64,000 nucleotides of DNA from an uncultured virus (IMG/VR IMGVR_UViG_2548877036_000001) (taxonomy: Duplodnaviria > Heunggongvirae > Uroviricota > Caudoviricetes). Positions 6,675-57,514 of the stretch are shown in pieces (within the stretch, counting starts at the first letter, position 1; each line of letters begins with the position of its first letter). A program made the position numbers and the translations under genes. The stretch lies in IMG/VR virus record IMGVR_UViG_2548877036_000001. One strand, given 5' to 3'. The notes beneath the pieces were generated by a model, which did no database searches, had not been told where the DNA came from, and saw nothing but the letters and a program-made list of their open reading frames with translations.

Positions 6675-6677
6675 TCC

Positions 6678-8564: not shown

Positions 8565-8573
8565 GAGTATCCG

Positions 8574-23689: not shown

Positions 23690-23700
23690 GACCAGAACCA

Positions 23701-32602: not shown

Positions 32603-32623
32603 GACTTGTTCCTTCCTTGGCGG

Positions 32624-39217: not shown

Positions 39218-39291
39218 GCGCCTCTAGCTCATCTGGCCAGAGCACCTGACTCTTAATCAGGGGGTACGGGGTTCGAGACCCCGGGGGCGTA
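39218..39291 (+). tRNA. tRNA-Lys(CTT)
   Basis: cloverleaf; CCTGA-CTCTTAA-TCAGG. Confidence 0.9.
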
Positions 39292-39294
39292 CGT

Positions 39295-39777
39295 AGCGCG
39301 ACGTGCGGTGGAGTAGACCGCACACGTACCAGTGGGTGGTGTCGGGTACTGGGTACGCGGCCAGAGTGCCGCAACCGACCATCAATCGGATCCTCCCCTC
39401 TCGCAGGTCTTCCGGTGTCAGAGCCCGGTTGGGGTGTGGGGGCGGCACCGATCGGCGTGAGATATACCGCCAACCGTCCACAGCTCGATTGCTCCGATCC
39501 CACTCCTCCTTCGCAAGGCGGGGCGGCGCGGCATCTCACCGCGAAACGACAACCCGTTCACCCAGTAGGGGCACCCAACGGTGAGCGGCACGGTGCAGGG
39601 TAAGACACCTTCGGGTGGGTCGAATCAGAGAGGGACACCGGCACACCGGTGTGGCGCCGTGGACAGACACGGGGGCGATAATGCAGCCCTTGACGGAGCA
39701 GGAGCCGCCTCGTTCTGGCGGCAGGCTAGAAATCCGAACACCGAGTGGTCCCGTCGGGCGCAACAATCCGGGACGCT
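39295..39777 (+). ncRNA. unassigned large structured RNA candidate
   Basis: no credible ORF; about ten local hairpins plus long-range complements. Confidence 0.5.
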
Positions 39778-39849
39778 GCGAGCGTGGTCCAATGGCTACG
39801 ACCTCAGACTTCCAATCTGATGATGCGGGTTCGATTCCCGTCGCTCGCT
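39778..39849 (+). tRNA. tRNA-Gly(TCC)
   Basis: TCAGA-CTTCCAA-TCTGA. Confidence 0.9.
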
Positions 39850-40002
39850 CTTGGTGCCCACGACGGTGGGTAGGGACAGAGGACGGTCCCTTCGCCACGG
39901 GGTTCGATTCCCTGCGTTGGCTTCGGCCCGCGGTGCGGAACTGGTGATGCCAGCTGGTCGGTGCCAGGTACCGGATCACTGCCGACCTTCTCCAAACATC
40001 TT

Positions 40003-40087
40003 GGCCCTGTGGCGAAACATGGCAGCCGCGCCGGATTCAAACTCCGGTGTCCGACAGGACGTGTGGGTTCGATTCCCTCCAGGGCTA
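40003..40087 (+). tRNA. tRNA-Leu(CAA)
   Basis: CCGGA-TTCAAAC-TCCGG, long variable arm. Confidence 0.88.
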
Positions 40088-40105
40088 CCGCGTCCGAATG
40101 AACAA

Positions 40106-40177
40106 TGCCTTGTGGGGTAATCGGCAGCCCACTGGATTTTGGCTCCGGGAGTTCAGGTTCGAGCCCTGGCGAGGCAG
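40106..40177 (+). tRNA. tRNA-Gln(TTG)
   Basis: CTGGA-TTTTGGC-TCCGG. Confidence 0.88.
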
Positions 40178-40203
40178 CAGGTCGGCGGACCCGAAACGCA
40201 CAT

Positions 40204-40275
40204 TGCCCGGTGGTCTAACGGCAGGACTCCTGATTCTGGATCAGGTCGGTGGAGGTTCGAATCCTCCCTGGGCAG
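40204..40275 (+). tRNA. tRNA-Gln(CTG)
   Basis: CCTGA-TTCTGGA-TCAGG. Confidence 0.9.
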
Positions 40276-40388
40276 CATCGCGAATCCCACTGTGCGGAGT
40301 TAATCGCCCGCGTGGCAGTGGTCTTCGCAGGTGGCGTTCCAGGAGCATGCTCGACGCTATGGCCCCGTTCCAGGATCACCACCACAAC

Positions 40389-40463
40389 GCCCTGATAGCT
40401 CAGTCCGGCCAGAGCATCTGCCTTGTAAGCAGAGGGTCGCCGGTTCGAATCCGGCTTGGGGCT
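40389..40463 (+). tRNA. tRNA-Thr(TGT)
   Basis: TCTGC-CTTGTAA-GCAGA. Confidence 0.9.
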
Positions 40464-40483
40464 CTCCCCCACCTTCGGGTGAT

Positions 40484-40558
40484 GCCGCCATAGCTCAGTG
40501 GCAGAGCGTTTCCTTGGTAAGGAAAAGGTCTCGGGTTCAACCCCCGATGGTGGCTCCA
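40484..40558 (+). tRNA. tRNA-Thr(GGT)
   Basis: TTTCC-TTGGTAA-GGAAA; encoded CCA. Confidence 0.92.
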
Positions 40559-40700
40559 CGGTTGTCGGTGACCACCCGCTGCGCGAGCGGAATGCGGAAC
40601 CGTCAGTCCCGGCGCCCCTCCGCCCATGCAGGGGTCTTCGATGGCCGCGCCGTGCCGGGCAAGCGAAGGTGCACCTCGCCGGAAGGCATGGGTTTCCGAT

Positions 40701-40776
40701 GTGGATGTAGCGCAGCTGGTAGCGCGTCTCGTAGCCAACGAGAAGGCCGCGGGTTCGAATCCCGTCTTCCACTCCA
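40701..40776 (+). tRNA. tRNA-Gly(GCC)
   Basis: TCTCG-TAGCCAA-CGAGA; A at position 33; encoded CCA. Confidence 0.85.
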
Positions 40777-40910
40777 GCACTTCTCCCCTTCGCGGGAGGT
40801 GTGGGGGCTGGTTCCGGCCCCGGCGTCAACGGAGGGTTCGCGTGGACCCTGTACCGCCCGATTGAGGTTGGCGGACGCAGAGCGCAGGTAACCCCTGTGG
40901 CAGGACACAT

Positions 40911-40984
40911 GCCCCTCTGGCCCAACTGGCAGAAGCGTCGGCTTCAGGTGCCGAAGGTTCCCGGTTCGAATCCGGGGAGGGGTA
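40911..40984 (+). tRNA. tRNA-Leu(CAG), short variable loop
   Basis: TCGGC-TTCAGGT-GCCGA. Confidence 0.85.
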
Positions 40985-40989
40985 CAACG

Positions 40990-41765
40990 AGGCATGGCTC
41001 GATAACCGGAGGTGACTCCGGGAAAGGTGGGTGTGACACCCCGCCGCCACAACGCTTCGGCGATGTGGCACACCATGCACGGCTCCCGCAAGGAGTACCT
41101 GGGCAACCGGGTGCCACAGCGGTCCGAGTTCGGCGACAGAAGGGACGGCGAGTGCTCACCTTCGCGCCGGCGCCACGCAGCGCCGGCACCGCCACGTGAA
41201 CGAGGACTGCCAGCGGGGTGCGAGGGAACACCAGTCCAAGCTCGCCAGGCGAGGGCGGTTCCCATGACCTCGGAATCCGGTGGGCGCATCGGTGCACGAC
41301 GAAGAGCGCAGCGGCTTGGCGGCCAAGCGCGAGGGTGTGAAGCATTCTGTGGCTCAAAAGGTTACGGAACTTCGCGGGAAAGCACATCCTCAGTCACAAA
41401 GCACTAGCTCAATTGGCAGAGCAATCGTTTCTGGAACGGTAGGTCGCCGGTTCAAGTCCGGCGTGTTTATCCAAGCGAAAGACTTTCCCTGCCACGGCTC
41501 GAAAGCGCCGTAATCCTCGGCCCTGCACAGGGAATCGAGGCAACCGTGAACTCGCAAGGTGATCGGATGTTCGTGAGGCAGTAGAGCAATACAGGGGTTA
41601 GCTCCCCCTGTGCGAATCGAAACCTGCGGAGTAGATCGTGGCATGACGAGTGGCTGCCGCAAGCAGCCCGGCGTGACGGTTACCAGGGGAACCTGGATGG
41701 ATAAGTCGGGAAACCATAATCCGATGAGAGACCGTTGCTTTGGGGCCTAATCTCAGCCCCAAATA
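40990..41765 (+). ncRNA. probable GOLLD RNA with embedded tRNA
   Basis: about 780-nt ORF-poor, hairpin-dense span in a tRNA array with many GNRA/UUCG-type loops and a terminal hairpin TTGGGGC-CTAATCTCA-GCCCCAA; family call from size, context and recalled motifs. Confidence 0.7.
41398..41473 (+). tRNA. tRNA-Gln(CTG), second copy, inside the putative GOLLD RNA
   Basis: ATCGT-TTCTGGA-ACGGT; GCCGG-TTCAAGT-CCGGC; encoded CCA; 1:72 mismatch. Confidence 0.8.
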
Positions 41766-41770
41766 ACCAA

Positions 41771-41845
41771 TAGCTCGTAGCTCAATTGTGGCAGAGCGCG
41801 CGACTGTTAATCGCGTAGTTGGAGGTTCGACTCCTCCCGGGCTAG
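41771..41845 (+). tRNA. tRNA-Asn(GTT)
   Basis: CGCGA-CTGTTAA-TCGCG. Confidence 0.9.
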
Positions 41846-41857
41846 CGCTTCATATTT

Positions 41858-41928
41858 GGGGCTGTAGTTCAACGGTAGAACAGGGCTTTTGCACGGCTCT
41901 GATCGGGGTTCGATTCCTCGTAGCTCCA
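41858..41928 (+). tRNA. tRNA-Ala(TGC)
   Basis: GGGCT-TTTGCAC-GGCTC; G3:U70. Confidence 0.88.
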
Positions 41929-41984
41929 CGGGCGCATCCGCGCCATTCCGGCCCGCCCACAACACGGAAAGGAGGCGCGGCGCC

Positions 41985-42452
41985 ATGACGACGATCGTGC
42001 CCGCGCCTTCCGTGCGGGTGTTCAACGCCGACTATTCGTTCCTCGACACCGTGCGCTGGCAAGACGCGGTCGGCATGCTTCTACGCGACGTGGCGTACGC
42101 GCTGGAGGCCCACGTGCCCCCGCGCATCGTCCGCTCGCCGAACGCGGAGGTGGAGGTGCCCAAGTCGCTTCTGCTGACTCGGTACGCCCCTGTCCCCTAC
42201 CGGCGCGATCCGGAGTTCGCCTCGCGTGCCGAGATTCTGCGCAGGGACAACTACCTGTGCCAGTACGTCGGCTGCGGAGCCAAGGCCACCACGATCGATC
42301 ACGTGTTCCCGCGTTCGCGCGGCGGCGCGCCGTCATCGTGGACGAACCAGGTAGGCGCGTGCGAGCCGTGCAACGGCCGCAAGGCGGACCGCACACCGGA
42401 GGAAGCAGGTATGAAGCTGATCCGCGAACCGTTCCGGCCAGCGCACATCTGA
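41985..42452 (+). CDS. HNH endonuclease
   Basis: ILRRDNYLCQY..C..TIDHVFPRSRGG..WTN..AC..CNGRK; AAGGAGG RBS. Confidence 0.92.
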   Translation: MTTIVPAPSVRVFNADYSFLDTVRWQDAVGMLLRDVAYALEAHVPPRIVRSPNAEVEVPKSLLLTRYAPVPYRRDPEFASRAEILRRDNYLCQYVGCGAKATTIDHVFPRSRGGAPSSWTNQVGACEPCNGRKADRTPEEAGMKLIREPFRPAHI

Positions 42453-42496
42453 CGACGGGGACCAGACCCGTGACAGCTCGGAGAGACGAGCTTCAT

Positions 42497-42567
42497 GGTC
42501 CGTTCGGTTAGTGGCAGGCCCCGGGATTCTCAGTCCCGTTACGCGGGTTCGATTCCCGCACGGACTA
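42497..42567 (+). tRNA. tRNA-Glu(CTC)
   Basis: CGGGA-TTCTCAG-TCCCG. Confidence 0.9.
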
Positions 42568-42704
42568 CGTTGAGTGGCGTTGAAATCGGGTTCGATTCCC
42601 GCAGGCCGATGGTGTGCCTGGTCGGTGTGGTGCCGCACGTCATGTAAGAGCCGTGCAAATCGGCGAAAACTCTACCGCTGCTGAGGGATCGGCGAGTAGA
42701 GCAC

Positions 42705-42777
42705 GGTCCCGAAGCTGAACTGGTTCAAGCGCTCGGTTGAAGCCCAAGAGAGGTCGGTTCGATTCCGGCCGGGACCA
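42705..42777 (+). tRNA. tRNA-Phe(GAA)
   Basis: CTCGG-TTGAAGC-CCAAG (one mismatch). Confidence 0.82.
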
Positions 42778-42783
42778 CGCAAT

Positions 42784-42871
42784 GTCGGTGTGGCGGAATG
42801 GCAGACGCACTAGCTTGAGGTGCTAGCGCCCATCAACGGGTATGCAGGTTCGACTCCTGTCATCGACACCA
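42784..42871 (+). tRNA. tRNA-Leu(GAG)
   Basis: CTAGC-TTGAGGT-GCTAG; long arm; CCA. Confidence 0.92.
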
Positions 42872-42872
42872 A

Positions 42873-42945
42873 GCCTCTGTGGCGCAACGGATAGCGCATT
42901 CGATTACGGATCGAAAGGTTGAAGGTTCGAGTCCTTCCAGGGGTA
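42873..42945 (+). tRNA. tRNA-Arg(ACG)
   Basis: TTCGA-TTACGGA-TCGAA. Confidence 0.92.
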
Positions 42946-43001
42946 CGCAACATCTGACGCTCTCGCACCCCCTTACATTGTGAAGGAGGTGCAGCCCAGG
43001 A

Positions 43002-43214
43002 ATGACCAGACGACGATCACCCGAGCACGACTACATCTGCCAGCGCTGCCTGTGTGCATGCAACGTCTCTGGCACCCGACATGAGGGTGGCGGCAGCGCC
43101 GACTTCCGCGCGTGCGAGAAGCCTCCGATTCCAGTGCTGCGTAGCGACTTCGAGAAAATGATCGCCGGGGATGTTGCCGCCATCCGAGAACGTCACCGGC
43201 ACCTTGGTACATAG
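43002..43214 (+). CDS. small Cys-containing hypothetical protein
   Basis: AAGGAGG upstream; CQRC motif. Confidence 0.55.
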   Translation: MTRRRSPEHDYICQRCLCACNVSGTRHEGGGSADFRACEKPPIPVLRSDFEKMIAGDVAAIRERHRHLGT

Positions 43215-43236
43215 CGCTGTTAGCACGTAACTATGA

Positions 43237-43313
43237 CGACCTGTAGCTCATCTGGTTAGAGCGCCGCCCTGATAAGGCGGAGGCAGTTGGTTCAAATCCA
43301 TCCAGGTCGACCA
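43237..43313 (+). tRNA. tRNA-Ile(GAT)
   Basis: CCGCC-CTGATAA-GGCGG; CCA. Confidence 0.92.
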
Positions 43314-43333
43314 CGCGGCGCATAGCCGCGCAT

Positions 43334-43407
43334 GCCGGTGTAGAGCAGCTGGTTAGCTCGCCGCCCTGTCACGGCGGAGGTCGCGGGTTCAAATCCCGTC
43401 ACTGGCG
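43334..43407 (+). tRNA. tRNA-Asp(GTC)
   Basis: CCGCC-CTGTCAC-GGCGG. Confidence 0.92.
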
Positions 43408-43432
43408 CCCGTGGTGCATTGGTCACCGCTTA

Positions 43433-43508
43433 GGTCTCGTAGCTCAGTTGGAAGAGCACCTGGTTTACACCCAGGGTGTCGGCGGTTCGAACCCGTCCGA
43501 GATCACCA
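43433..43508 (+). tRNA. tRNA-Val(TAC)
   Basis: CCTGG-TTTACAC-CCAGG; CCA. Confidence 0.92.
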
Positions 43509-43509
43509 T

Positions 43510-43593
43510 GCCGGCACGGCGCAGAGGCGAGGCGCAGCGGCCTGTAAAGCCGTTCTCTCGGGTGAGTGGGTTCAATTCCTTCTGCCGGCACCA
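43510..43593 (+). tRNA. tRNA-Tyr(GTA)
   Basis: GCGGC-CTGTAAA-GCCGT; long arm; CCA. Confidence 0.85.
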
Positions 43594-43621
43594 GGCCCGC
43601 GTCGGCCTCAACGACGTGAAA

Positions 43622-43695
43622 CGGGATGTGGCGCAGCTTGGTAGCGCATCTGCTTTGGGAGCAGAGGGTCGCACGTTCAAATCGTGTCATCTCGA
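43622..43695 (+). tRNA. tRNA-Pro(TGG)
   Basis: TCTGC-TTTGGGA-GCAGA. Confidence 0.92.
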
Positions 43696-43708
43696 CGCAC
43701 AAATTTCA

Positions 43709-43781
43709 GCCCGCGTAGCTCAGTGGATAGAGCGCCTGCTTCCGAAGCAGACGGTCCCGAGTTCAACTCTCGGCGTGGGCA
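43709..43781 (+). tRNA. tRNA-Arg(CCG)
   Basis: CTGC-TTCCGAA-GCAG. Confidence 0.88.
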
Positions 43782-43785
43782 CTTC

Positions 43786-43861
43786 GCCTCTATAGCTCAG
43801 TCTGGTCCAGAGCCACCGACTTTTAATCGGAGGGTCGCAGGTTCAAATCCTGCTGGGGGCA
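43786..43861 (+). tRNA. tRNA-Lys(TTT)
   Basis: CCGA-CTTTTAA-TCGG. Confidence 0.88.
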
Positions 43862-43998
43862 CCCGGCCGCACCGTCGGCCGAATCTTGGAAGATGAACGC
43901 GCCTGGCGCGCACGGCTTCGAACACCGTTGGTCGCTTCAGCGATGGGGATCAGAGCTCCGTCTTCCGCTTTATGGGGATCTATCGATCTATCCCCTAT

Positions 43999-44071
43999 GC
44001 GTCCGTGGTCTAGCGGCCAAGACGCCGGTCTCCAAAACCGGAAGACGTAGGTTCGAGTCCTGCCGGGCGTG
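43999..44071 (+). tRNA. tRNA-Trp(CCA)
   Basis: CCGGT-CTCCAAA-ACCGG. Confidence 0.9.
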
Positions 44072-44138
44072 CAAGTACCCGACCATCGAACGGTGGCCGG
44101 TAATCAGAGGTCGCGACGACGGTCGCGGTCTCGTCCAT

Positions 44139-44211
44139 GGCGTCGTGCTGTGATGGCTAGGCACCCGGGCTTTCATCTCGGGACGCGCGGGTTCGATTCC
44201 CGTCGACGCTG
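44139..44211 (+). tRNA. tRNA-Glu(TTC)
   Basis: CCGGG-CTTTCAT-CTCGG. Confidence 0.85.
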
Positions 44212-44383
44212 CTCAATCCTCGGCGTGTCGTGGCACCCCACTGGAGCCCACGCCAGGCGACATAGAAGCTGAACACGCGAGATCCCGTGTCAACGCCAGC
44301 CCCCCGTTCTACCTGGCGAAGGCATCTCCACGACGCCGCATAGTCTCGGACGAGAGGTGACCTGCACGGGATCTCGCGCATAT

Positions 44384-44459
44384 GCCCCTGTAGCTCAGTG
44401 GACAGAGCGGCACGGTCCTAACGTGACGGCCGGCGGTTCGAATCCGTCTGGGGGCACCA
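44384..44459 (+). tRNA. tRNA-Arg(CCT)
   Basis: CACG-GTCCTAA-CGTG; CCA. Confidence 0.88.
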
Positions 44460-44485
44460 CAGTTCGGCAACCGATCGGAGTGAAC

Positions 44486-45082
44486 ATGGCAACGCGGGAC
44501 GAGAGACACGCAGCTGCGTTCATTGTCGATGTGGAGGCCACCTCGCGCACACCGTTCAGTGGTGTGATGACTGAGTTCGCCGTGGTCCAGCTGGTTTCGG
44601 GCGCTTCGTTCTACGGGCACATCTACCGCAACCATCCGCATCCGGACAACTCCGCGATCCCTGTTGCAGATCTCGACGGTGAGGGTGACTACATCAGCGA
44701 GGCGTACTGGATCGTCGACGGCAAGGACGTCGCCAACGCAGTGGCAGGTTCGGAACCGGCCGATGTCGCTAGCGCACTGCGCGCATGGGTCGACGGATTC
44801 GGTTTACCACGCCGGGTACTGGTCAGCGACAACAACGGCTACGACGCGATGTGGCTGAACTGCTTCACTGACAGCTGGACGGGTGAGGTCTTTTTCGGCC
44901 ACTCGTCGCGGCGCATCGGTGACTTCTACGCAGGCACTCGGCAGAAGTGGGCTGATCACTCCTCATGGAGGAGTCTGCGCCGTACACGACACACCCACCA
45001 TCCACTCGACGACGCACGGGGTAACGCTGAGGCTCTGCGCACGCTGCTGGGCATTGATGTCGATCGCAAAGTCGAGGATTAA
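44486..45082 (+). CDS. DEDD/DnaQ-like 3'-5' exonuclease (RNase AS-like)
   Basis: FIVDVEAT (Exo I), SDNNGYD (Exo II), HTHHPLDDARGNA (Exo III). Confidence 0.85.
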   Translation: MATRDERHAAAFIVDVEATSRTPFSGVMTEFAVVQLVSGASFYGHIYRNHPHPDNSAIPVADLDGEGDYISEAYWIVDGKDVANAVAGSEPADVASALRAWVDGFGLPRRVLVSDNNGYDAMWLNCFTDSWTGEVFFGHSSRRIGDFYAGTRQKWADHSSWRSLRRTRHTHHPLDDARGNAEALRTLLGIDVDRKVED

Positions 45083-45084
45083 CC

Positions 45085-45330
45085 ATGCCGACGATGACGC
45101 TGTACACCCTGTGGTGCGAGGGATACGCCGCCTCCGGAGAGCATGGACGCGCGCGTTCACTGGGTACCTGGGCCGCGGAGTCATTCGACTCTGCTGTGGA
45201 ACTGTGGAATGCGACCAAGAACCGAAATTCGATGTACGGAAACCTCGTTCACCACGAGAACGGTTCCTGGACCTTGTGGGGCTGCCGGTTATTCGACAAC
45301 GAGGCCGATGCCCGCCGAGCGTTCGGATGA
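45085..45330 (+). CDS. phage-like hypothetical protein
   Basis: LWCEGYAASGE..WGCRLFDNEADARRAFG. Confidence 0.7.
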   Translation: MPTMTLYTLWCEGYAASGEHGRARSLGTWAAESFDSAVELWNATKNRNSMYGNLVHHENGSWTLWGCRLFDNEADARRAFG

Positions 45331-45454
45331 ACGGCTCCAGCTGACAGCTAGCGGTGTCGGCGTGTCGCGCGGTCGCAGTGGATTCGAGAGTTCTTGCAGC
45401 GGAGGCTATATGCCAGTGCTCGAACCGCACCAATCGCCGAACCTTGGAGGGCAT

Positions 45455-45658
45455 ATGAAACTCTGCGTCACCGCTGTGATCGCGGCGGCACCCTTGTTGA
45501 TCTTCGCTCCATCCGCCAGCGCGGGGCCGCGCTGTCTCCCAGACCAAACAGCCTGCTGCCCCAGCGGCTACATAGTGGCCGAACACCCCAGCGGTGCGAT
45601 GACGTGCTCTCCTGACGTCGATGCCCAGTCCGCCGCCCGAAACAGCATCCCGATCTGA
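45455..45658 (+). CDS. small secreted Cys-rich protein
   Basis: GGAGG RBS; signal peptide ending ASA. Confidence 0.6.
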   Translation: MKLCVTAVIAAAPLLIFAPSASAGPRCLPDQTACCPSGYIVAEHPSGAMTCSPDVDAQSAARNSIPI

Positions 45659-45718
45659 TCGGTAGACACTCCACCTCCGCGGTGTGCGCCGCTGCGATTC
45701 AGAGGTGTCAGGCGCAGG

Positions 45719-45793
45719 AGCGGAGTAGGGCAGCTTGGTCAGCCCGCGTGGCTCATAACCACGAAGTCGCAGGTTCGAATCCTGCCTCCGCCA
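45719..45793 (+). tRNA. tRNA-Met(CAT), initiator-like
   Basis: CGTGG-CTCATAA-CCACG; A1:C72 mismatch. Confidence 0.88.
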
Positions 45794-45841
45794 CAATCTT
45801 TCGACCGATGTGCTGGAGCTGTGCCCGTGAAAGGTGTATCA

Positions 45842-46060
45842 ATGCGGATCATTGATATGGTCGACAGCCCGGGCTTCAACCCTGCCACGCAACAGGATCG
45901 CGGAGATTGGTCACTGCGTGACGTGTCCGCCGCGCAGGTCGGGTTGGCTGACGACGGAAAGCCTGCATGCATCGATCACGGCGCAATGAATTGCGTAAAC
46001 ATCGAGCGCTCGATATGGCGTTGCCTGATGTGTGGACGATCCTGCTACGCGATCTGGTGA
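45842..46060 (+). CDS. small Zn-ribbon-like hypothetical protein
   Basis: GAAAGG RBS; CIDHG..WRCLMC. Confidence 0.6.
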   Translation: MRIIDMVDSPGFNPATQQDRGDWSLRDVSAAQVGLADDGKPACIDHGAMNCVNIERSIWRCLMCGRSCYAIW

Positions 46061-46090
46061 GACCCCCGGCCAGCACTGCGGGAAAATCAT

Positions 46091-46164
46091 TGCTGTGTAG
46101 CTCAGTTGGCAAGAGCCCCGAACTCATAATTCGGTAGTCGCGGGTTCGAGTCCCGCCACAGCTA
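46091..46164 (+). tRNA. tRNA with CAT anticodon (Met or Ile2)
   Basis: CCGAA-CTCATAA-TTCGG; T1:T72 mismatch. Confidence 0.85.
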
Positions 46165-46195
46165 CGACGCGCCATTCCAGTCGGAACGGCGCTTT

Positions 46196-46277
46196 GGAAG
46201 GTACGCGGCCGGCGCCGCACCCCGCCTTGAAAGCGGGTGGCCGCATCAGCGGTGGGGATCGACACCTCTACCTTCCG
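46196..46277 (+). tRNA. tRNA-Ser(TGA), atypical
   Basis: CCCGC-CTTGAAA-GCGGG; long arm; T loop ATCGACA. Confidence 0.75.
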
Positions 46278-46413
46278 CGCAACCCAACCGGCTCACAACT
46301 GGAAGGGAACTTGCTCGGCTGAGATGCCGGGTGCGGGTGGCTCCGCCTGCGTGACTGTGGACGGACGGCGCGCAGATAGCGGCCCGGGCTGGGCCTGTCC
46401 CCCGGCTCGACAT

Positions 46414-46489
46414 GGCGTCGTTAGCTCAGCGGTAGAGCCCCGGTTTGTGGAACCGGTAGTCGTCGGTTCGATCCCGACACGTCGCCCCA
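46414..46489 (+). tRNA. tRNA-His(GTG)
   Basis: CCGGT-TTGTGGA-ACCGG; G-1:C73; CCA. Confidence 0.9.
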
Positions 46490-46921
46490 TCGGCTGCGGC
46501 ACCGCGTCGCGTTCGTCCGGACGCGCTGCCGCGGCCCAACATCGTCGACGTGAGTGACACACGTAATGACCCACTCGACCTTCGTCTTGCCGCGACAGGC
46601 GGGCATGGGATCCGCGGCTTCCTGAGCATCACGGTCCGGACCAGGACTACATCGCACCCGGACGACGAGTAGCGCACCTGCCCGGTTTCAACTGGCCGAA
46701 TACCCCAGAGAAGTGCATTGCGGGCCACCTCGACACAGTTTGGGTTCTCGACGGGCAGCTTCTCCTCTGCACGGGTTGCGGGCTGGACGGAACCTGATGC
46801 TGAACGTTGTCGACCTCGCGGTAACGACCAGGGTTAGTGCGCTAGGCGAGGATCGGGCGCAGTGCTACTGGGTGGCCCTGGTGACAATCTCCAGCTCAAC
46901 ATGACAGTTCTGCACGAACAT

Positions 46922-46996
46922 GCCTCCGTGGCGCAAAACGGATAGCGCACCGGCTTTCTACTCCGAGGGTTGCCGGTTCGAATCCGGCCGGGGGCA
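46922..46996 (+). tRNA. tRNA-Arg(TCT), weak anticodon stem
   Basis: CGG-CTTTCTACT-CCG; normal acceptor, D and T arms. Confidence 0.78.
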
Positions 46997-47018
46997 CCGA
47001 CAAGGTTCGAAAGATCCA

Positions 47019-47093
47019 CGGGCTGTGGGAAAGTTTGGTCAATCCGCCTGGCTGGGGGCCAGGAAATCGCGCGTTCGAATCGCGCCAGCCCGA
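47019..47093 (+). tRNA. tRNA-Pro(GGG)
   Basis: CCTGG-CTGGGGG-CCAGG. Confidence 0.88.
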
Positions 47094-47239
47094 CCGCCAG
47101 TTCGCACCCCATTGCCCCGTGAGGCGATGTACGGGGGTGAGGTCGACGAGAGTGTGATCGACAACCGCGTTACCGGTCGCTATTGCTCGTGCGGAGGCGA
47201 TTGATATGACTGAACCGTGAGATTGCCCAGGAGGCGGCC

Positions 47240-47476
47240 TTGTCGAAACACATAAGCCCCATGGGGGCCGTCAAAAAGGTTGCACAACAGAACAACCGAC
47301 TGAAGTCCTCGTACTACACCGCTGGAGAGAAACGTGCGATGAAAGCCGCACGCGAGAAACGGGCTGCCGCACGCGCCGAAGCCAGCGAGGAAGAGCTCCA
47401 GGATATGCTGGACGCCGATATGCGTTGGCTCGCCAGTCTTGACCCCAGGCTCAGCCAAAAAAGGTCTGACACTTAG
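47240..47476 (+). CDS. small basic hypothetical protein
   Basis: AGGAGG RBS, TTG start. Confidence 0.6.
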   Translation: MSKHISPMGAVKKVAQQNNRLKSSYYTAGEKRAMKAAREKRAAARAEASEEELQDMLDADMRWLASLDPRLSQKRSDT

Positions 47477-47543
47477 CCTTCGGCAACACTTCCCAACTTG
47501 AACATTGAGCTGGCCCAGCTCCACCCGCGCTAGCGCGGGTCCT

Positions 47544-47614
47544 GTCTCCGTGGCCGAGTGGTTAAGCAGCGGCCTGCAAAGCCGTCTACGCCGGTTCGAA
47601 TCCGGCCGGAGACT
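47544..47614 (+). tRNA. tRNA-Cys(GCA)
   Basis: GCGGC-CTGCAAA-GCCGT. Confidence 0.9.
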
Positions 47615-47643
47615 CAAAGCGCGGGCCCTGAGGTCCCGACGCT

Positions 47644-47718
47644 GCCCCTTTAGCTCAGATGGCCAGAGCGCCCGCCTCGTAAGCGGGAGGTTCGTGGGTT
47701 CGACTCCCGCAGGGGGCT
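47644..47718 (+). tRNA. tRNA-Thr(CGT)
   Basis: CCCGC-CTCGTAA-GCGGG. Confidence 0.9.
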
Positions 47719-47744
47719 CAAACAGGCACGTGCAGTGTCTGATT

Positions 47745-47818
47745 CGGGGTATGGGAAAGCTTGGCAATCCGCCTCGTTCGGGACGAGGAGACCGGCGGTT
47801 CAAATCCGTCTACCCCGA
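47745..47818 (+). tRNA. tRNA-Pro(CGG)
   Basis: CCTCG-TTCGGGA-CGAGG. Confidence 0.9.
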
Positions 47819-47843
47819 CGTTGGTTTTGCCCGCCACCTGGCA

Positions 47844-47883
47844 GTATCTTTTGGATAGATGATAGTATCTGCCAAACAGATAT
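47844..47883. promoter_or_regulatory. two tandem ATCT-N7-AGAT palindromes, candidate auto-operator
   Basis: GTATCTTTTGGATAGAT and GTATCTGCCAAACAGAT directly upstream of the RBS of 47897. Confidence 0.55.
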
Positions 47884-47896
47884 CGAAGGAGTGGAC

Positions 47897-48532
47897 ATGA
47901 CCTACCCCGACACGAGCATCGCGCACCCCACCGATATCGTCCGAGAGGCTGATGCGCCTTGGCATACGGGCGACGTGTTCAGCCTTCGCGGCTTGGTCGA
48001 CGCCACAGTGCTGATCCGCCCCTTATCCAGACACGTTTACGCATCACGATGGAGCCACGACGGTAGAGCAACGGCGATCGTCGCCGATATAGCGGTGCTA
48101 GAGGACCACAACCATGCCGCCAGCCTCTACAGCCAAGTCACCATTTTTCAGCCGAACGTTGTCAAGGCGCTGTGCGCGGTTCTGGACAATCCACATGTTT
48201 TCACCGTCGCCGGTGTGGTGTCCGTGATCGGCGACAGTGGGCGACGCGCCTGGGTACTCGCTCCGTTGCCAGAGGCCCTGATCCCCGCAGCTGCGGCAGA
48301 AGCAGCAGCGCGGGACTGGGACTATCCCCCGGACTACGACGCAATCGTGGGCCGCAAGATCGCCGCTCTGCGCAGCGATAAAGGACTTCCCCAGGCAGCC
48401 CTAGCGGGCGTTTTGGGTGTCATGCAGTCGGGCGTATCTGACATCGAATCCGGGCGGCGGTCATTGGACCTCAAGAAGCTGTACGCGATCGCAACAGCAT
48501 TGGGTGTACCAGTCAGCGACCTACTGCCCTGA
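47897..48532 (+). CDS. protein with C-terminal XRE HTH domain
   Basis: VGRKIAALRSDKGLPQAALAGVLGVMQSGVSDIESGRR. Confidence 0.85.
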   Translation: MTYPDTSIAHPTDIVREADAPWHTGDVFSLRGLVDATVLIRPLSRHVYASRWSHDGRATAIVADIAVLEDHNHAASLYSQVTIFQPNVVKALCAVLDNPHVFTVAGVVSVIGDSGRRAWVLAPLPEALIPAAAAEAAARDWDYPPDYDAIVGRKIAALRSDKGLPQAALAGVLGVMQSGVSDIESGRRSLDLKKLYAIATALGVPVSDLLP

Positions 48533-48578
48533 GGCAGACAAATTACGACGTCCGATTGCGTTGCGATAAAACAAATTT

Positions 48579-48664
48579 GGAGACGTGGCAGAGCGGCGAA
48601 TGCAACGCGTTGCTAGCGCGCAGTCGACACACATCGACCGAGGGTTCGAGTCCCTCCGTCTCCG
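48579..48664 (+). tRNA. tRNA-Ser(GCT)
   Basis: CGCG-TTGCTAG-CGCG; long variable arm. Confidence 0.85.
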
Positions 48665-48748
48665 CGGGGCATCACACACTTCGGGGTTCTTGTTCGCCAG
48701 TACACACTTTTCAGTAGCGTAAGTTTCTGCGCCGTGTGCCTGCCAGAG

Positions 48749-52499: not shown

Positions 52500-53252
52500 C
52501 TACTTGGGCGCTGGCGGAGCAGGCTCAGCGACGGTCCACGCTCCCGACGACCCGATGAGCCTTCCGGCCCCGGCCGTTTCGGCGCGCGCACCCGACAGCG
52601 GGCCTGTGACGTCGGCAGCGCCAGAAGTGATCTTGGCGGTGCGCCCATTGAGCGTGATCGAAATGACCCCGGCTGCGGTGAACACCGCAGTCGCCTTCTC
52701 GGCGCGATACACGGTCTGGGTGCTGCCGGGAATCGTGTTCTCCACGCGAGCCTGCGGACCGGGTAGCAGCGCGGCTGTCGCGGTGCGCAACGGGAAGGCG
52801 ATGTCACCGAACAGCGCTCCGACGTTCACCCATCCCTCGAAAGCGGTCGGTACACCGATCGAGGCCCAGAACGAGGAGTTTCCACGCAGGTACACCAAGT
52901 TCGCCGCGACCAGCAGGTCCGCCGATTCCGCTCCGGATCGCACCTTGCCGATCGAGTCGCCGGTGGCGGCCTGGACGGTCTCGGTCACTTCGAAGCGGGC
53001 CACCGCGGTGGTGACTTGGCTCTCGACATGAACGAAGCCGTTGCTGAGCTCGGAGCGTGCGTCTGCTACCGCGGCAAGCTCCATCACGGACAGCTCACGT
53101 TCGGGCGGGGGTGGCGGTAGCACCGGATCCCGCAGCACCAGCCAGGCGACGATCGGCACAGCTGCCAGCGCCCACACGAGCGCGATCACTAGTCCGCTAC
53201 GTGCGGCCTTCTGCTTCAGAGTCAGTCCGGGCAGTTCCCACATTTCGCGCAC
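52500..53252 (-). CDS. membrane-anchored protein
   Basis: N-terminal TM then poly-Pro; VYLRGNSSFW motif. Confidence 0.75.
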   Translation of the reverse strand: MREMWELPGLTLKQKAARSGLVIALVWALAAVPIVAWLVLRDPVLPPPPPERELSVMELAAVADARSELSNGFVHVESQVTTAVARFEVTETVQAATGDSIGKVRSGAESADLLVAANLVYLRGNSSFWASIGVPTAFEGWVNVGALFGDIAFPLRTATAALLPGPQARVENTIPGSTQTVYRAEKATAVFTAAGVISITLNGRTAKITSGAADVTGPLSGARAETAGAGRLIGSSGAWTVAEPAPPAPK

Positions 53253-53367
53253 AGTCGCTTCTCCCTTGTCACTGGTCCCCTGCGTGGGGTCGCGGCGGAA
53301 GTTATCCGTTGTGCACGAGGAGTCCCGACAGCGGCGCGGGCATGTGAGCCAAGTGGCGGGGCTGCGG

Positions 53368-54594
53368 TCAAGGAGATGGCATTCTTACTCGTCGGGCGGC
53401 GTTAATCACCGCGGTACGTACGGCGCTGTCTGTGGGGTTTCCGGCCCGTATCAGGGCGGTGAGCGCCCGCTCGTACTCTTCTCCCGGGTCAGAGGCTACT
53501 TCCTTTGACAAGATGGCGATCGTAGCGTTGAGGGTTAGCACATCTAGCGATTGACCGAAGCTCCACATGCTGTCAGCCCACGGTTCCCCGTAGACATCTG
53601 CCAGCTGCTTGTTGATGTCCACTAATGCGTGGCGCAGAGACAGTTCATGTGCTTTATCGACAGTCAACGTGGTTTCGTCTTCGGGCCAATTGAAGAAAGC
53701 TTCGAACGCTGGCTTACCCCGATAGCGTCCGCGACCTCCGTCGGCATTGGCCACGAGGTATTGGGTGGCGCGGTGGCGATGTTCGTGCGGGAAGGCGTAC
53801 ACCCTGAGGTCTTGAACGATCCAGCGTCCCCAAAGTTCGCGGCTTACGGCGTTGGCGATGCGCTGCGCGGTCTCTGGCTTGAGTGCTGACAAGGCACGAT
53901 CGGCTTCAGTGAATAAGCCGACGCCGCCGGCAGTTGATGAACGCAGCTTCCGCGGCGGGCGAATAAGGCGGCCGCGCTCATCCGGTGTGGGACTGCTGCC
54001 GTACTTAGCCACAATCCGCGCCAGCTGGCCTCGCGCGTGATCTTCCCCCAAGACCGGCCTGGACCAACGCGGATGTTCCATCTCAAGCCGCACCCTCAGA
54101 TAGGCAGGTGAATACTCGCATAGTTCAAGCAATGCCGGGGACGCGGGGTCGCGCTCCTCTAAAATCTCGCGTATCTGAGATGGTATGTCAGAGAACAAGA
54201 TTGAACCGCCATTGGCGAGTAGAGCCGCGTACTGCCGGATGAGGTGAGCTGCCCGGGCTTCGACGAGACCGTCAGGGAGCTGGCGCGGCAGCCGTTCGCC
54301 GTAAATTCCGCGGGCGAGCACCGCCTCACGGCTCGTACGGTCGCTATTTCCGCGGAATTTCTCGATCAGGCCCATACGATCACCCCTTCTCTCCTGAACC
54401 GTCAGCTGGAGACCAAGTGCGTCGGCGATGTCAGCGACGATTCCTATTTCGCCGCGTGGATGCCCGGCCTCGATCTTGGAGATGGACTGGCGCGTAACTC
54501 CAGACCGCTCCGCCAGATCGACAAGGCTCCAGTTCTTCGCCGTTCGCGCCGCCTCCAAGGCGCGTCCGATGCGCCACACATCATCCTTGGTCAC
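53368..54594 (-). CDS. XRE-HTH fused to an uncharacterised C-terminal domain
   Basis: IGRALEAARTAKNWSLVDLAERSGVTRQSISKIEAG. Confidence 0.8.
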   Translation of the reverse strand: MTKDDVWRIGRALEAARTAKNWSLVDLAERSGVTRQSISKIEAGHPRGEIGIVADIADALGLQLTVQERRGDRMGLIEKFRGNSDRTSREAVLARGIYGERLPRQLPDGLVEARAAHLIRQYAALLANGGSILFSDIPSQIREILEERDPASPALLELCEYSPAYLRVRLEMEHPRWSRPVLGEDHARGQLARIVAKYGSSPTPDERGRLIRPPRKLRSSTAGGVGLFTEADRALSALKPETAQRIANAVSRELWGRWIVQDLRVYAFPHEHRHRATQYLVANADGGRGRYRGKPAFEAFFNWPEDETTLTVDKAHELSLRHALVDINKQLADVYGEPWADSMWSFGQSLDVLTLNATIAILSKEVASDPGEEYERALTALIRAGNPTDSAVRTAVINAARRVRMPSP

Positions 54595-54784
54595 TTGAGG
54601 TAGCGTACGCGCACTGATTCCAAACGGTCAACGTACGTTAACGCGGCGCGGTCGGGCCACGGCTAAAGCGGTAGCTAGGACCTGCCTGTATCTGACACCA
54701 ACTGCGGGTCGCTCACACACCGCTACACATCACGACGGTCAGACCGGGCGCGACTACCAATTCTTCAGGGGCTGGTAAACCTAC

Positions 54785-55819
54785 TCAGTAACGAGGCATC
54801 TCGTCACCGAGTGAGTTCTTCTCCCCAGGATCGTCCGAGGTGTTCAGGAAGTCCTCTGATGTGTCGATCAGGTTGTCGAGATATTGGCGAGCGTCGATGA
54901 CCGCCTGATGCTTCTGAAAGTCCGGCTCATGCGCCCACGGAGCGTGCACGGCTCCCTGCCATGCGTCGGCGGCGCGGTACGCCTCGATCGCAGCTAGCAC
55001 TTCATGTGGACTGCGGCTGGGATACTCGTCGGTCACCAGCCTGCATTCGCCGCCGCTCTCAAATGCCTTGGCGAGCTTCTGCTCCGGTGTTTCCGATTCC
55101 AACTTCCGCGCAATCGCGAACACCGGATACGGCCTTCCACCCCACACCCCCTTTAACGAGTGGGTTCCGAGGAGATATGCCTTGCGTTCGCGCTTGTCCT
55201 TGCCGTCGTTGTAGTGCTTGAACAGAAGGTGGGCCACTTCGACGGTCAGGACGAAATAGCCACGCGCGGCGAACTTCAAGACGCGAAACCCCGTGTCGAT
55301 GCTCGGCCCGACAAAGTCCATCGCGAAATTGACCACGAACTTGCCCTCGGTGTCGGCCTTGTTCAACATCGTCTCGTTGATCTGCTCTGGATCGAGCTGT
55401 GATCCGCTCTCGGAAATCTGCACTGTGCGAGGGATCGCGACGCGCCGATCGGGTGCCGGAACCGTTGCCAGGAAGGCCCCGCCTTTGAGGGTCATCGGCG
55501 TCTTGACGAGTAGATGTTGGGTCTCGAACTCAAGCATGGTGTCAGTCCATGCGTCGACGGCGTCGCTGCAGTCCTTCTCCGACTTGATCCGGATCGAGAA
55601 GATCAGCTCGTCACCGATGGCCTTCCACAGCGAGAGCCGGCCCTGCAAATCCGGATACAACTCGACGATCCTTGCCGCCAGCAGCGACGGGAACTCTGTA
55701 TAGAAGGCCAGGAACGTCGCAACCCACCTGGCCTCGCTCTTCTGCTTGAACTGCGTGGAGTTCTGTAGGTCGCAAGAGAGAAAGAGAATGGAACCGTCTT
55801 CGTTGAGACCAGCGGCCAT
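54785..55819 (-). CDS. class III nucleotide-cyclase-like protein
   Basis: LFLSCDLQNST, WKAIGDELIF, DFVGPSIDTGFRV correspond to the two metal-binding Asp motifs and the G..N...R helix of adenylate/guanylate cyclases. Confidence 0.65.
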   Translation of the reverse strand: MAAGLNEDGSILFLSCDLQNSTQFKQKSEARWVATFLAFYTEFPSLLAARIVELYPDLQGRLSLWKAIGDELIFSIRIKSEKDCSDAVDAWTDTMLEFETQHLLVKTPMTLKGGAFLATVPAPDRRVAIPRTVQISESGSQLDPEQINETMLNKADTEGKFVVNFAMDFVGPSIDTGFRVLKFAARGYFVLTVEVAHLLFKHYNDGKDKRERKAYLLGTHSLKGVWGGRPYPVFAIARKLESETPEQKLAKAFESGGECRLVTDEYPSRSPHEVLAAIEAYRAADAWQGAVHAPWAHEPDFQKHQAVIDARQYLDNLIDTSEDFLNTSDDPGEKNSLGDEMPRY

Positions 55820-56340
55820 CAGGTGAGCAGGCCGAGAAATTCGGCACGGACCCTCGCCGCTGGAACAGACACCTCGAAGTGCCGGGCGACTGTCGCCAAG
55901 TTGTGGTTCGACTCGGCGAACACCTTGCTGAACGCGGGCGCGGGCATCAAGAGATTCGATGCGAATACATTCGCTTGCGTCTCAGCGGGATTGCGGCCCA
56001 GCCGGGTAAACCTGGAGACCCGCTCACCGGTGAGATGTGTGTCGGGGGCCCGGTTGTGCAGGAAGTAGTGCCCGAGCTCATGGGCGATCGTGAATCTGTC
56101 GCGCAGCCGTGAGGTGTGGGTAGGGATGATCACGGTGAAGTCGCGGGGGCTGCGAATTTCGAGCGACTCGACACGTTCGTCAACAACGATGTCGCCGCCG
56201 AGCTTGTTCAGCAGAGCATGCACGTCAACGTGGCCGCTCTCATCGATGACCTCGTGCTGGCACGCGATTTCCTCGGCATACGCCGCGATCGCGGAGTACG
56301 ACAACTTCGACAGCGGTGCCTGAACCGCAGCTTGAGTCAT
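55819..56340 (-). CDS. ImmA/IrrE-family (DUF955) Zn metallopeptidase
   Basis: RDRFTIAHELGHYFLH, ETQANVFASNLLMP, VARHFEVS; TGATG-coupled to the cyclase-like gene. Confidence 0.9.
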   Translation of the reverse strand: MTQAAVQAPLSKLSYSAIAAYAEEIACQHEVIDESGHVDVHALLNKLGGDIVVDERVESLEIRSPRDFTVIIPTHTSRLRDRFTIAHELGHYFLHNRAPDTHLTGERVSRFTRLGRNPAETQANVFASNLLMPAPAFSKVFAESNHNLATVARHFEVSVPAARVRAEFLGLLT

Positions 56341-56659
56341 CACGCTCACCTCCACCCCAATCATCCTCCAACTAGTGGGGATCGGAAACCTCCCCAGGCT
56401 GCGAGCTACATCGCACAGCTTGCCTTGCCGTGACCTGGCGAAGGGGGTGATTCACCAGATTCAACCGCAGCGTAGCGCCCAGGATCTGCCGGCGACTCTC
56501 GACACTCTGCACACCGCTGTTTGTGCACAATCGGTGAGAATCACCCAAAATCCGGGGACGTGACATGAATTCGCGACTTTCATCATTTCCGCAGGTCAGG
56601 CGGTTTCGCGTCAACGAGGTCCGACGCACGAACACGCGTGCAGCTACCTGAAATGTGCG

Positions 56660-57514
56660 GTGACGTGCCACGATGTGTTTGTGGCAAAGAGATACCGGCT
56701 CGTTTGCGCGCTGGCTGCCGCTGCTGCAGCGGTGTCAGCGTGCTCTACAGCCGTGTCCGGAACACCGGTCTCTGATACGCCAAATGCGCCAGCCGCCGGC
56801 GCCGCTGTCTCGGCTACACCCAGCGGGGTGACCACCCGCTGGATCGATGTCTCCGGACAGGGTGTCATCGTGAAGGACTCCCGCGGTACGCAATTTGGTG
56901 CGCTCCCCTACCCGGGAGCCGTCATCGCCCAGCGCCAAACCAATGGATCCACGAAGGAATGCACACTGGGTCCCGCTGTTGCGGACAAGAGCACGAAGCG
57001 GACCGGGTTTGTCGGCGCCGGACACTGCGACAACTCCCCCGGCGGTCAAACCTTCGTCTTCGCAGACTCCGAAGGTGCTGAACCGGTCCCTGTCGGGGTG
57101 TACGCCAACTCCAAGGATGGGCCAACTCCGCTGGGCTACAGCGATTCAGCGGTGATTTGGTCCAAAATCCTGGACCCGAGATCCACCCTCATTGCAGGCA
57201 CCTGGCCAGTGGATGGCGTCATGCCATCCAGCGACGTGCGCAAGCTGCGCGCAGGGACACCGATCTGCATCGACGGAGCAGTTTCCGGCGTCATCTGCAG
57301 TCCGCTGATCGCAGCCGATGACTCATACATCCGCTCCGTGCCTATCACCCAGCACGGAGACAGCGGAGCCCCTGTGTTTATCGTCGACGAGCAGACCCGA
57401 CACGCGACACTGATCGGCATTGTCAGCGGCACCGAGAACGGCCAAGACGAATCGACCTTTCTCGAAGCTGAGCTGACGAGGCTTGGCGCCACGGCACTCA
57501 CCGCAACCCCTTAA
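56660..57514 (+). CDS. lipoprotein with trypsin-like serine protease domain
   Basis: lipobox VSAC; AGHC, SDSAVI, GDSGAP triad motifs; true start may be slightly downstream. Confidence 0.85.
   Translation: MTCHDVFVAKRYRLVCALAAAAAAVSACSTAVSGTPVSDTPNAPAAGAAVSATPSGVTTRWIDVSGQGVIVKDSRGTQFGALPYPGAVIAQRQTNGSTKECTLGPAVADKSTKRTGFVGAGHCDNSPGGQTFVFADSEGAEPVPVGVYANSKDGPTPLGYSDSAVIWSKILDPRSTLIAGTWPVDGVMPSSDVRKLRAGTPICIDGAVSGVICSPLIAADDSYIRSVPITQHGDSGAPVFIVDEQTRHATLIGIVSGTENGQDESTFLEAELTRLGATALTATP

Follow-up and report, generated by a model that had tools for sequence, protein, structure and literature searches.

An M78 peptidase gene coupled to a predicted class III-fold nucleotide cyclase forms a widespread, mobile two-gene cassette

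We analysed a 64,000-nucleotide stretch of DNA from an uncultured virus (IMG/VR record IMGVR_UViG_2548877036_000001; hereafter the window), focusing on two minus-strand genes that overlap near its right-hand end. One encodes a zinc peptidase of the M78 family, the family of ImmA, IrrE and CapP, and the other a 344-amino-acid (aa) protein whose modelled structure is that of a class III nucleotide cyclase. A first-pass annotation had grouped these two genes with a following XRE-type helix-turn-helix (HTH) gene as a candidate defence or signalling system. The pair and its cyclase are borne out by the analysis below; the XRE gene as a component is not. The features of the pair are:

55819..56364, minus strand: M78 (ImmA/IrrE/CapP-type) zinc peptidase gene, 181 aa, peptidase domain only, identified by Pfam, PADLOC and PDB matches
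55817..55821, minus strand: TGATG stop/start overlap of the peptidase and cyclase genes, 1 nt (ACC TGATG GCC)
54785..55819, minus strand: gene for the 344-aa predicted cyclase, from the list of open reading frames (ORFs)
55100..55819, minus strand: class III cyclase-homology domain, residues 1–240 of the 344-aa protein, from the AlphaFold2 model, Foldseek and VIA-align
54788..55099, minus strand: C-terminal extension, residues 241–344, a predicted small helical sub-domain followed by an acidic disordered tail ending in ...LGDEMPRY

The peptidase stop codon and the cyclase start codon have one A in common, so the overlap of a HEXXH peptidase gene with the cyclase start is as the first-pass annotation had read it. 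A GGAGG sequence stands 8 nt before the ATG at 56340, and for this reason the peptidase probably starts there and is 173 aa long. Scanning positions 53000–57000 for promoters and terminators returned none. No DNA nearly identical to the window was found in the phage and plasmid collections searched.

By its modelled fold, the 344-aa protein belongs with the class III nucleotide cyclases. AlphaFold2, supplied with a 39-sequence alignment, gave a model with a predicted local distance difference test score (pLDDT) of 86.9 and a predicted template modelling score of 0.86. Foldseek returned 171 PDB matches at E ≤ 1e-3; among the matches listed, all are catalytic domains of class III adenylyl or guanylyl cyclases, the best being CyaC (1wc5, 1.5e-7). 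With VIA-align, the model reached Z 15.1 to the soluble domain of adenylyl cyclase 9 (6r4p_A; root-mean-square deviation (rmsd) 3.0, 195 residues aligned), 14.7 to the mammalian adenylyl cyclase C2 domain, 14.5 to Pseudomonas aeruginosa CyaB and 13.9 to Rv1900c, and every one of these matches covers model residues 1–240. The cyclase likeness that had been proposed from short motifs is supported by these matches. It is visible by fold comparison only, since a PDB sequence-profile search with the cyclase alignment gave no match at E ≤ 10. The protein does match phrog_18024 in PHROGs (1.3e-37), a group of unknown function, and in the ESM Atlas it falls near unnamed clusters, the nearest named ones being a PF00211 cluster (0.91) and DUF2652 (0.90), which serve as leads only.

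Beyond residue 240, the C-terminal extension is modelled as a small helical part and a tail with a pLDDT of 54–58 over the last ~25 residues. The protein carries no Pfam domain and, as had been noted at first pass, no transmembrane (TM) segment (maximum 19-aa Kyte–Doolittle value 1.19). Some longer family members (P0258, P0260) have a NUDIX domain fused at the C-terminus. The phage proteins phiCD27 gp37 and LE1 gp80 match no Pfam family at E ≤ 0.05, and the 'Nudix' label of the phiCDHM19 homologue was not reproduced for these two. None of the fused long forms (603–2000 aa) scored, a result that counts for little. In P0157, a protein of 330 aa, the cyclase is joined to a peptidase without its catalytic middle; we set it aside as a deletion or assembly artefact.

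Active-site columns were assigned by comparing the family profile with a profile of nine genuine PF00211 domains, all taken from the genome of family locus L007 (probability 71%, E 3.6e-5), the roles of the aligned positions being those we take from the class III cyclase literature. In this alignment, D17 and D70 fall on the two metal-binding Asp columns, and K66 and D168 on the base-specifying Lys/Asp columns; the Arg column holds R179, and the KG-motif Lys is matched by K223. The column of the canonical transition-state Asn is occupied by D175, four residues before the retained Arg. The motifs SCDLQNST, AIGDE and SIDTGFR picked out by the first-pass annotation are all present, and its observation that the metal-binding Asp residues are kept while the Asn is replaced carries over to the family at large. 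Across 356 family sequences, D17, K66, D70, D168, D175, R179 and K223 are near-invariant. Asp occupies the D17 and D70 columns in 331/356 and 350/356 sequences, respectively, the remainder being mostly gaps, and column 175 holds Asp in 350, a gap in 6 and Asn in none. From these residues, the cyclase looks catalytically competent yet chemically distinctive. The Lys/Asp pair, shared with adenylyl cyclases, suggests by analogy a purine nucleoside triphosphate (NTP) substrate, probably ATP.

Compared with the class III adenylyl cyclases CyaC of Spirulina, CyaB of P. aeruginosa, Rv1900c and Ma1120, the cassette cyclase has the same fold (Z 13.5–14.5, rmsd 2.4–2.8 over 160–180 residues) and the same metal, Lys/Asp, Arg and Lys positions. 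Unlike them, it lacks a sensor or TM region, has Asp in place of Asn, bears the extra helical part and acidic tail, and is too dissimilar in sequence for PF00211.

The family is large, and its members are tied to the peptidase gene. An exhaustive HMMER search of 1.84 billion representatives yielded 1467 clusters (50% identity) at E ≤ 1e-3, 624 at E ≤ 1e-10 and 46 at E ≤ 1e-30. Among 83 loci other than that of the window, 56 have a same-strand peptidase gene directly upstream: 53 of 80 genome loci and all three annotated phage or plasmid records, namely phiCD27 gp38/gp37 (gp38 being a metalloprotease), LE1 gp81/gp80 and the Mycolicibacterium chubuense plasmid pMYCCH.02, whose cyclase homologue is 77% identical. 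The 27 genome loci without a peptidase comprise 26 from one Caulobacteraceae clade and one (L051) that is cut at a contig start. Outside that clade, the peptidase lies directly upstream in 67/69 loci, and the remaining two end at a contig edge. Pairs are also present on 8/9 IMG/VR contigs, the ninth of which starts inside the cyclase gene (two of these loci, L100 and L101, duplicate genome loci L034 and L035), and in 2/2 additional gammaproteobacterial matches. When the longest ORF is taken for each gene, the gap or overlap between the two is no more than 13 nt in 43 of 57 pairs. The distances between partners co-vary (Mantel r = 0.83 over 62 loci, with 0/999 permutations as high), a correlation to which shared host phylogeny contributes. 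Pairing is far beyond chance.

Host range is broad and patchy. The bacterial phyla represented are Actinomycetota, Pseudomonadota, Verrucomicrobiota and Lentisphaerota; other loci lie in phages of Clostridioides and Leptospira and on a plasmid of Mycolicibacterium. Only 3/301 sampled Mycobacteriaceae genomes and 3/400 sampled Gammaproteobacteria genomes have a family member. Broken copies of the cassette occur at three loci (L008, L012 and L056). Clustering of neighbours within 2 kb uncovered no third conserved gene at the peptidase-linked loci: apart from the peptidase itself, seen at 56 loci, it gave an artefact made of antisense ORFs, at 22 loci, and the housekeeping genes that surround the peptidase-less clade. 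The pair that the first-pass annotation had asked to see conserved is thus kept across phyla and mobile elements, and peptidase plus cyclase is a self-contained, horizontally mobile two-gene cassette of plasmids, prophages and genomic islands.

The peptidase is recognized by standard models. It matches Pfam Peptidase_M78 (PF06114) at 1.1e-18 and carries the HELGH motif; its top PADLOC match is capP (1.1e-25), and its PDB matches are CapP (7t5t, 2.2e-6) and IrrE (3dte, 5e-4). The zinc and catalytic residues H95, E96, H99 and E128 are kept across 31 partner peptidases. RmrA models in PADLOC also match it, at 4e-17 to 5e-7, over their peptidase half only, these profiles of 357–400 positions being matched only from position ~165 onward. 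Pfam finds no HTH domain on it. The chains of CapP and IrrE are 291–301 aa long, and the PDB alignments of the cassette peptidase (173–181 aa) reach only residues ~45–178 of them. Judged by these matches, the protein corresponds to the peptidase domain alone, is without an HTH and probably lacks the GAF-like C-terminal domain of CapP/IrrE. A second, more distant M78 gene lies ~770 bp upstream of the coupled peptidase on pMYCCH.02 (L001, 4650–5225) and in M. pinniadriaticum (L005, 2605–3180).

The 26 peptidase-less loci, from Phenylobacterium and other Caulobacteraceae (within L047–L083), form one branch with a Shimodaira–Hasegawa-like approximate likelihood-ratio support (SH-aLRT) of 100 in a quick IQ-TREE tree that was midpoint-rooted for drawing only. 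Their cyclase genes have conserved housekeeping surroundings and are convergent with a long RelA/SpoT gene; at L054, for example, the cyclase occupies 5836–6924 and the RelA/SpoT gene 7089–9293 (4e-135 to RelA). The clade retains the catalytic residue set and differs at the C-terminus. In peptidase-linked members (66 sequences) the tail is acidic: its final 30 aa hold a median of 7 acidic and 1 basic residues, and it often ends in the form ...D/E-x-x-P-L-G. In the 26 peptidase-less members, a conserved amphipathic 'DFDWAPPYILNRI..W..E.RYR' segment replaces it. The Caulobacteraceae clade lost the peptidase together with the acidic tail, and this correlation is our main, indirect reason for thinking that the peptidase acts on the cyclase protein. 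The clade itself may represent a domesticated second-messenger enzyme.

M78 peptidases are known as repressor-cleaving switches, and the first-pass annotation had accordingly considered cleavage of an HTH repressor in the manner of CapH/CapP. We scanned the neighbours of the pair by Pfam (50 upstream and 47 downstream, 40 of the latter also against PADLOC) and found no recurrent HTH partner among them, the single HTH protein, downstream of the pair in L014, being unrelated. With no conserved HTH partner near the pair, the repressor-cleavage idea is left without a repressor. The neighbours are heterogeneous and include rpoB, rpoC, rplL, pckA, integrases and one capsid gene. Many pairs lie between housekeeping genes (rpoB/rpoC, rplL, pckA) with no element around them. 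An integrase adjoins the prophage-borne pairs of L026, L096, L100 and L101; the phiCD27 pair is near an integrase, beside which that phage has a second metalloprotease, and LE1 gp81/gp80 adjoins the CI gene gp79.

Two loci encode a PycTM effector next to the pair. In Methylomonas fluvii (L071), PycTM (4678–5229), peptidase (5253–5771) and cyclase (5959–7152) follow one another on one strand; in Brevundimonas (L078, 5089–7865), a convergent PycTM gene lies 3 bp after the cyclase (PADLOC 4.6e-14). In each of these genomes, this is the sole PycTM match. The position of PycTM beside both pairs favours production of a cyclic mononucleotide (cNMP) signal by some, at least, of the family. The L071 operon is followed by a convergent gene for a 268-aa protein with an HNH effector nuclease domain of the type found in cyclic oligonucleotide-based antiphage signalling systems (CBASS; PDC-M68A, 3e-30). 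In Arthrobacter (L033, 7125–8021), a Crp-family regulator (cNMP_binding plus HTH_Crp_2) is encoded on the strand of the pair, 165 bp further downstream; its presence may be coincidental, or it may act as a receptor.

Our leading interpretation, which we hold tentatively, is that the cassette is a self-contained, protease-gated cyclase module of biological conflict, a variant in the manner of Pycsar and RosmerTA. A stress or infection cue would activate a latent M78 peptidase, as CapP, IrrE and ImmA are activated. The activated peptidase would then act on the cyclase itself and not on a repressor, most probably through the acidic C-terminal extension, and would thereby license a purine-NTP cyclase that probably uses ATP. 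The resulting burst of cyclic nucleotide, or the drain on NTPs, could arrest the cell or act on cNMP receptors, which might be PycTM where it is encoded beside the pair and host receptors elsewhere. A more specific version seems unlikely: that the cassette is a new class of conflict module with a single enzyme, in which an ImmA-type protease cuts off an acidic latch to turn on a purine cyclase whose invariant Asp-for-Asn site may yield a non-standard product, in a system that is mostly effector-free, and that the Caulobacteraceae lineage was domesticated without protease or latch as a housekeeping second-messenger enzyme beside relA/spoT.

Several observations weigh against a protease-gated conflict module. 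PycTM adjoins only 2/67 pairs, and the window, like most of the loci scanned, lacks an effector or receptor gene next to the pair. Pfam, NCBIfam and PADLOC give zero matches to the 344-aa protein at E ≤ 1, PF00211 and PycC models included, and a PF00211 search of the genome with L007 found 11 cyclases without the family member being among them. The Asn-to-Asp change may lower or alter the cyclase chemistry. The order of the genes, peptidase first and overlapping, fits an antitoxin–toxin pair as well as an activator, so that the peptidase could equally be placed to neutralize the cyclase. Finally, 26 Caulobacteraceae cyclases persist with no peptidase, stably placed among housekeeping genes and convergent with relA/spoT, and for this reason the cyclase is not necessarily harmful.

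The main competing explanation, which we consider somewhat unlikely, is a toxin–antitoxin system similar to RosmerTA. The cyclase would be a toxin, acting by cNMP overproduction or NTP depletion, and the coupled peptidase an antitoxin, working by binding or constant trimming; the pair would stabilize plasmids and prophages, with defence secondary. This accounts for the antitoxin-first, overlapping layout, for the match of the peptidase to the RmrA peptidase half and for the presence of the cassette on a plasmid-like element and prophages, as well as for the existence of broken copies. ImmA-type peptidases with a swappable partner, arranged as two-gene mobile modules with a link to phage defence, are also a precedent in the available text of the NetFlax paper (Ernits et al., PMC10440598), where ImmA appears as a hub antitoxin with many swapped toxins. 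No cyclase partner is described in that text, and neither 'cyclase' nor 'guanylate' was found in the searched part of its supplement. RmrA combines an N-terminal HTH with its ImmA peptidase, whereas the cassette peptidase has no HTH and its partner is a cyclase-fold enzyme. Moreover, 26 genomes stably keep cyclases without the peptidase, and PycTM beside two pairs points to signalling, not direct toxicity.

Regulation of the mobile element is less probable again. Here, the cyclase would sense or report the state of the host through cAMP or cGMP made for receptors of the host or of the element. The peptidase would cut a repressor whose gene lies at another place on the element, and the outcome would be an adjustment of induction, transfer or lysogeny in place of defence. 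The phage-borne pairs in or near lysogeny regions (LE1 by CI, phiCD27 and the four integrase-adjoined loci) and the Crp-type cNMP-binding regulator that follows the pair in L033 are in keeping with such a role, as is the action of ImmA, IrrE and CapP on HTH repressors, all three of which are so described in the available part of the preprint by Lau et al. (10.1101/2022.04.27.489752). Yet the pair has no conserved HTH partner beside it, many pairs stand alone among housekeeping genes, and in phiCD27 the second metalloprotease by the integrase is available for the classical role. A counter-defence or decoy function, in which the cyclase (sometimes Nudix-fused) distorts host nucleotide immune signalling and the peptidase degrades a host factor, is very improbable: phages and plasmids carry the pair, some members have NUDIX fusions and the window element has a NAMPT-type NAD (nicotinamide adenine dinucleotide) salvage gene, but many copies lie on chromosomes with no phage genes around them, the L071 operon includes PycTM, which is an effector that kills the host, and our searches revealed no likeness to known anti-defence proteins.

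The cassette corresponds to no named system in PADLOC-DB 2.0.0 (the 2023 release), Pfam or NCBIfam, in agreement with the first-pass annotation, which had not recognized the pairing. Our literature search found no paper describing an ImmA/M78-coupled cyclase and none naming both Pycsar and ImmA. One candidate (10.1101/2025.02.27.640495) was rejected as a description of the pair; the cyclase in it is a two-hybrid reagent only. In the accessible passages of Makarova et al. (2009, 2013), COG2856–Xre is discussed and cyclases are not. In the accessible part of a 2026 Pucsar preprint that surveys immune cNMP cyclases (10.64898/2026.08.12.744502), JAB and caspase peptidases appear and an ImmA/M78 partner is not mentioned.

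The closest known systems include CapH/CapP and the Pycsar group. The available part of the Lau et al. preprint places CapH/CapP upstream of an operon of DUF2188, nucleotide cyclase and cNMPBD-TIR genes, a layout that, unlike the cassette, has both a repressor and an effector. The cassette peptidase is of the same M78 family as those of CapH/CapP and of DdrO/IrrE, as well as of ImmR/ImmA. Unlike CapH/CapP, the cassette has no HTH substrate gene. Its peptidase gene is co-directional with the cyclase gene and overlaps it, whereas capH and capP are found on the opposite strand, upstream of the operon that belongs to them.

Pycsar and Pucsar consist of a PycC or PucC class III-type cyclase and a PycTM or CNBD-TIR effector; Pycsar reportedly goes back to Tal et al. 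in 2021, and RosmerTA is said to come from Millman et al. in 2022. Like Pycsar and Pucsar, the cassette has a cyclase of class III fold that stands alone and is carried on mobile or defence DNA, with PycTM beside the pair in L071 and L078, and this cyclase retains the residues that catalyse 3',5'-cyclization except for the Asn. Unlike them, its cyclase goes unseen by PycC and PF00211 models and has the Lys/Asp pair and an invariant Asp for Asn, and the cassette has an obligate M78 peptidase partner and, in the window and most loci, no effector. The catalytic and specificity residues of PycC are given in the accessible part of PMC11224242. The cassette brings together features of described systems, pairing a cyclase of the Pycsar type with an ImmA-type protease proposed to control it, in a form that is widespread and escapes current family models.

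CBASS, Pycsar, Pucsar and type III CRISPR immune systems are defined by a cyclase and an effector. The family described here is a large group of cyclases, invisible to standard models, that is tied gene-to-gene to an M78 peptidase, while a repressor is absent and an effector usually so. Direct gating of the enzyme by the protease, if it occurs, would mean that conflict systems control nucleotide signalling by a new logic, and would give one more family for the libraries of defence-finding tools. Biochemical work has direct points of entry in the Asp-for-Asn active site and in the Caulobacteraceae clade that lacks the peptidase.

Downstream of the pair, across a 190-bp gap and on the same strand, lies the XRE gene that the first-pass annotation had counted as a third component:

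53368..54594, minus strand: XRE-HTH gene, 408 aa, with HTH_3 at residues 13–65 only and a 340-aa uncharacterised C-terminal part
54627..54642, no strand assigned: 16-bp near-perfect palindrome GTCAACGTACGTTAAC, from a repeat search, 33 bp upstream of the XRE start

The gene is there as described, but the comparison with other loci separates it from the pair. A homologue of the 408-aa protein stands beside 0/83 other family loci and occurs in 0/301 Mycobacteriaceae genomes. A search of 5.8 billion proteins gave 6 homologue clusters, and a metagenome scan gave one short fragment. XRE, cyclase and peptidase genes are contiguous in two isolate contigs (X5 and X12) at ~98% identity, and only in such isolates does the XRE gene stay with the pair; near-identical isolates that keep all three genes are silent on whether it is independent. 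The palindrome, with a copy of its half-site at 54601–54609, is a candidate operator, from which the XRE gene would be transcribed as a unit apart from the pair. The XRE gene is rare, adjoins the pair in near-identical relatives only and has a palindrome of its own; we therefore regard it as a neighbour and not a component of the cassette. Its AlphaFold2 model was unusable (pLDDT 38.5, 6 sequences). The DNA turned up in 20 DNA datasets from 10 studies under 5 organism labels, with no RNA dataset among those listed. In an RNA run with the same species label (X21), reads fall on the flanks only, with none over 53268–56483, which fits either absence of the DNA or silence of the genes; nothing aligned from X24.

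Several neighbours of pairs in other genomes are of defence type, in keeping with a conflict module; we list them as occurrences only. They are PDC-M41B/DUF5131 (L005), a dGTPase (L032), PbeA (L036), Abi_C (L014), DruA (L049), WYL-WCX (L050), GmrSD_C (L030 and L109) and an HNH effector-type nuclease (L071). The PDC-M41B/DUF5131 protein of L005 has a homologue in pMYCCH.02 as well, and a DUF5131 (PDC-M41B)/TcmP pair lies downstream of the cassette in both L001 and L005. In Rhodobacterales and relatives, the cassette lies by rpoB, rpoC or rplL at three loci (L044, L056 and L061), which suggests that the rplL–rpoBC region is a recurrent insertion spot.

The rest of the window has features of its own. 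ARAGORN identified 36 tRNA genes within 9.4 kb (39218–48665, plus strand), covering most amino acids and lying just upstream of the studied region. An ESX/type VII secretion locus at 28325–34420 (minus strand) encodes an EccC-like FtsK/SpoIIIE ATPase (1425 aa) and EccB (598 aa, PF05108 5e-94). With its EccB/EccC genes and 36 tRNAs, the element presumably resembles a large mycobacterial conjugative plasmid. At 20824–23701 (minus strand), a gene for a NAMPT-type nicotinamide phosphoribosyltransferase (582 aa) adjoins one for a phosphoribosyltransferase-domain protein (299 aa), an NAD-salvage pair that we take to be reminiscent of phage NAD-reconstitution counter-defence. Two WhiA-like paralogues with three WhiA domains each (5643–6674 and 8574–9527, plus strand) lie within 4 kb, and the element also carries a helicase gene. 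Finally, a long ORF at 47735–48532 (plus strand) overlaps tRNA-Pro (47745–47819) and has an XRE HTH_3 domain only in its last ~60 residues; the true gene there is more likely to be a far shorter HTH gene whose end, at 48532, comes just ahead of tRNA-Ser.

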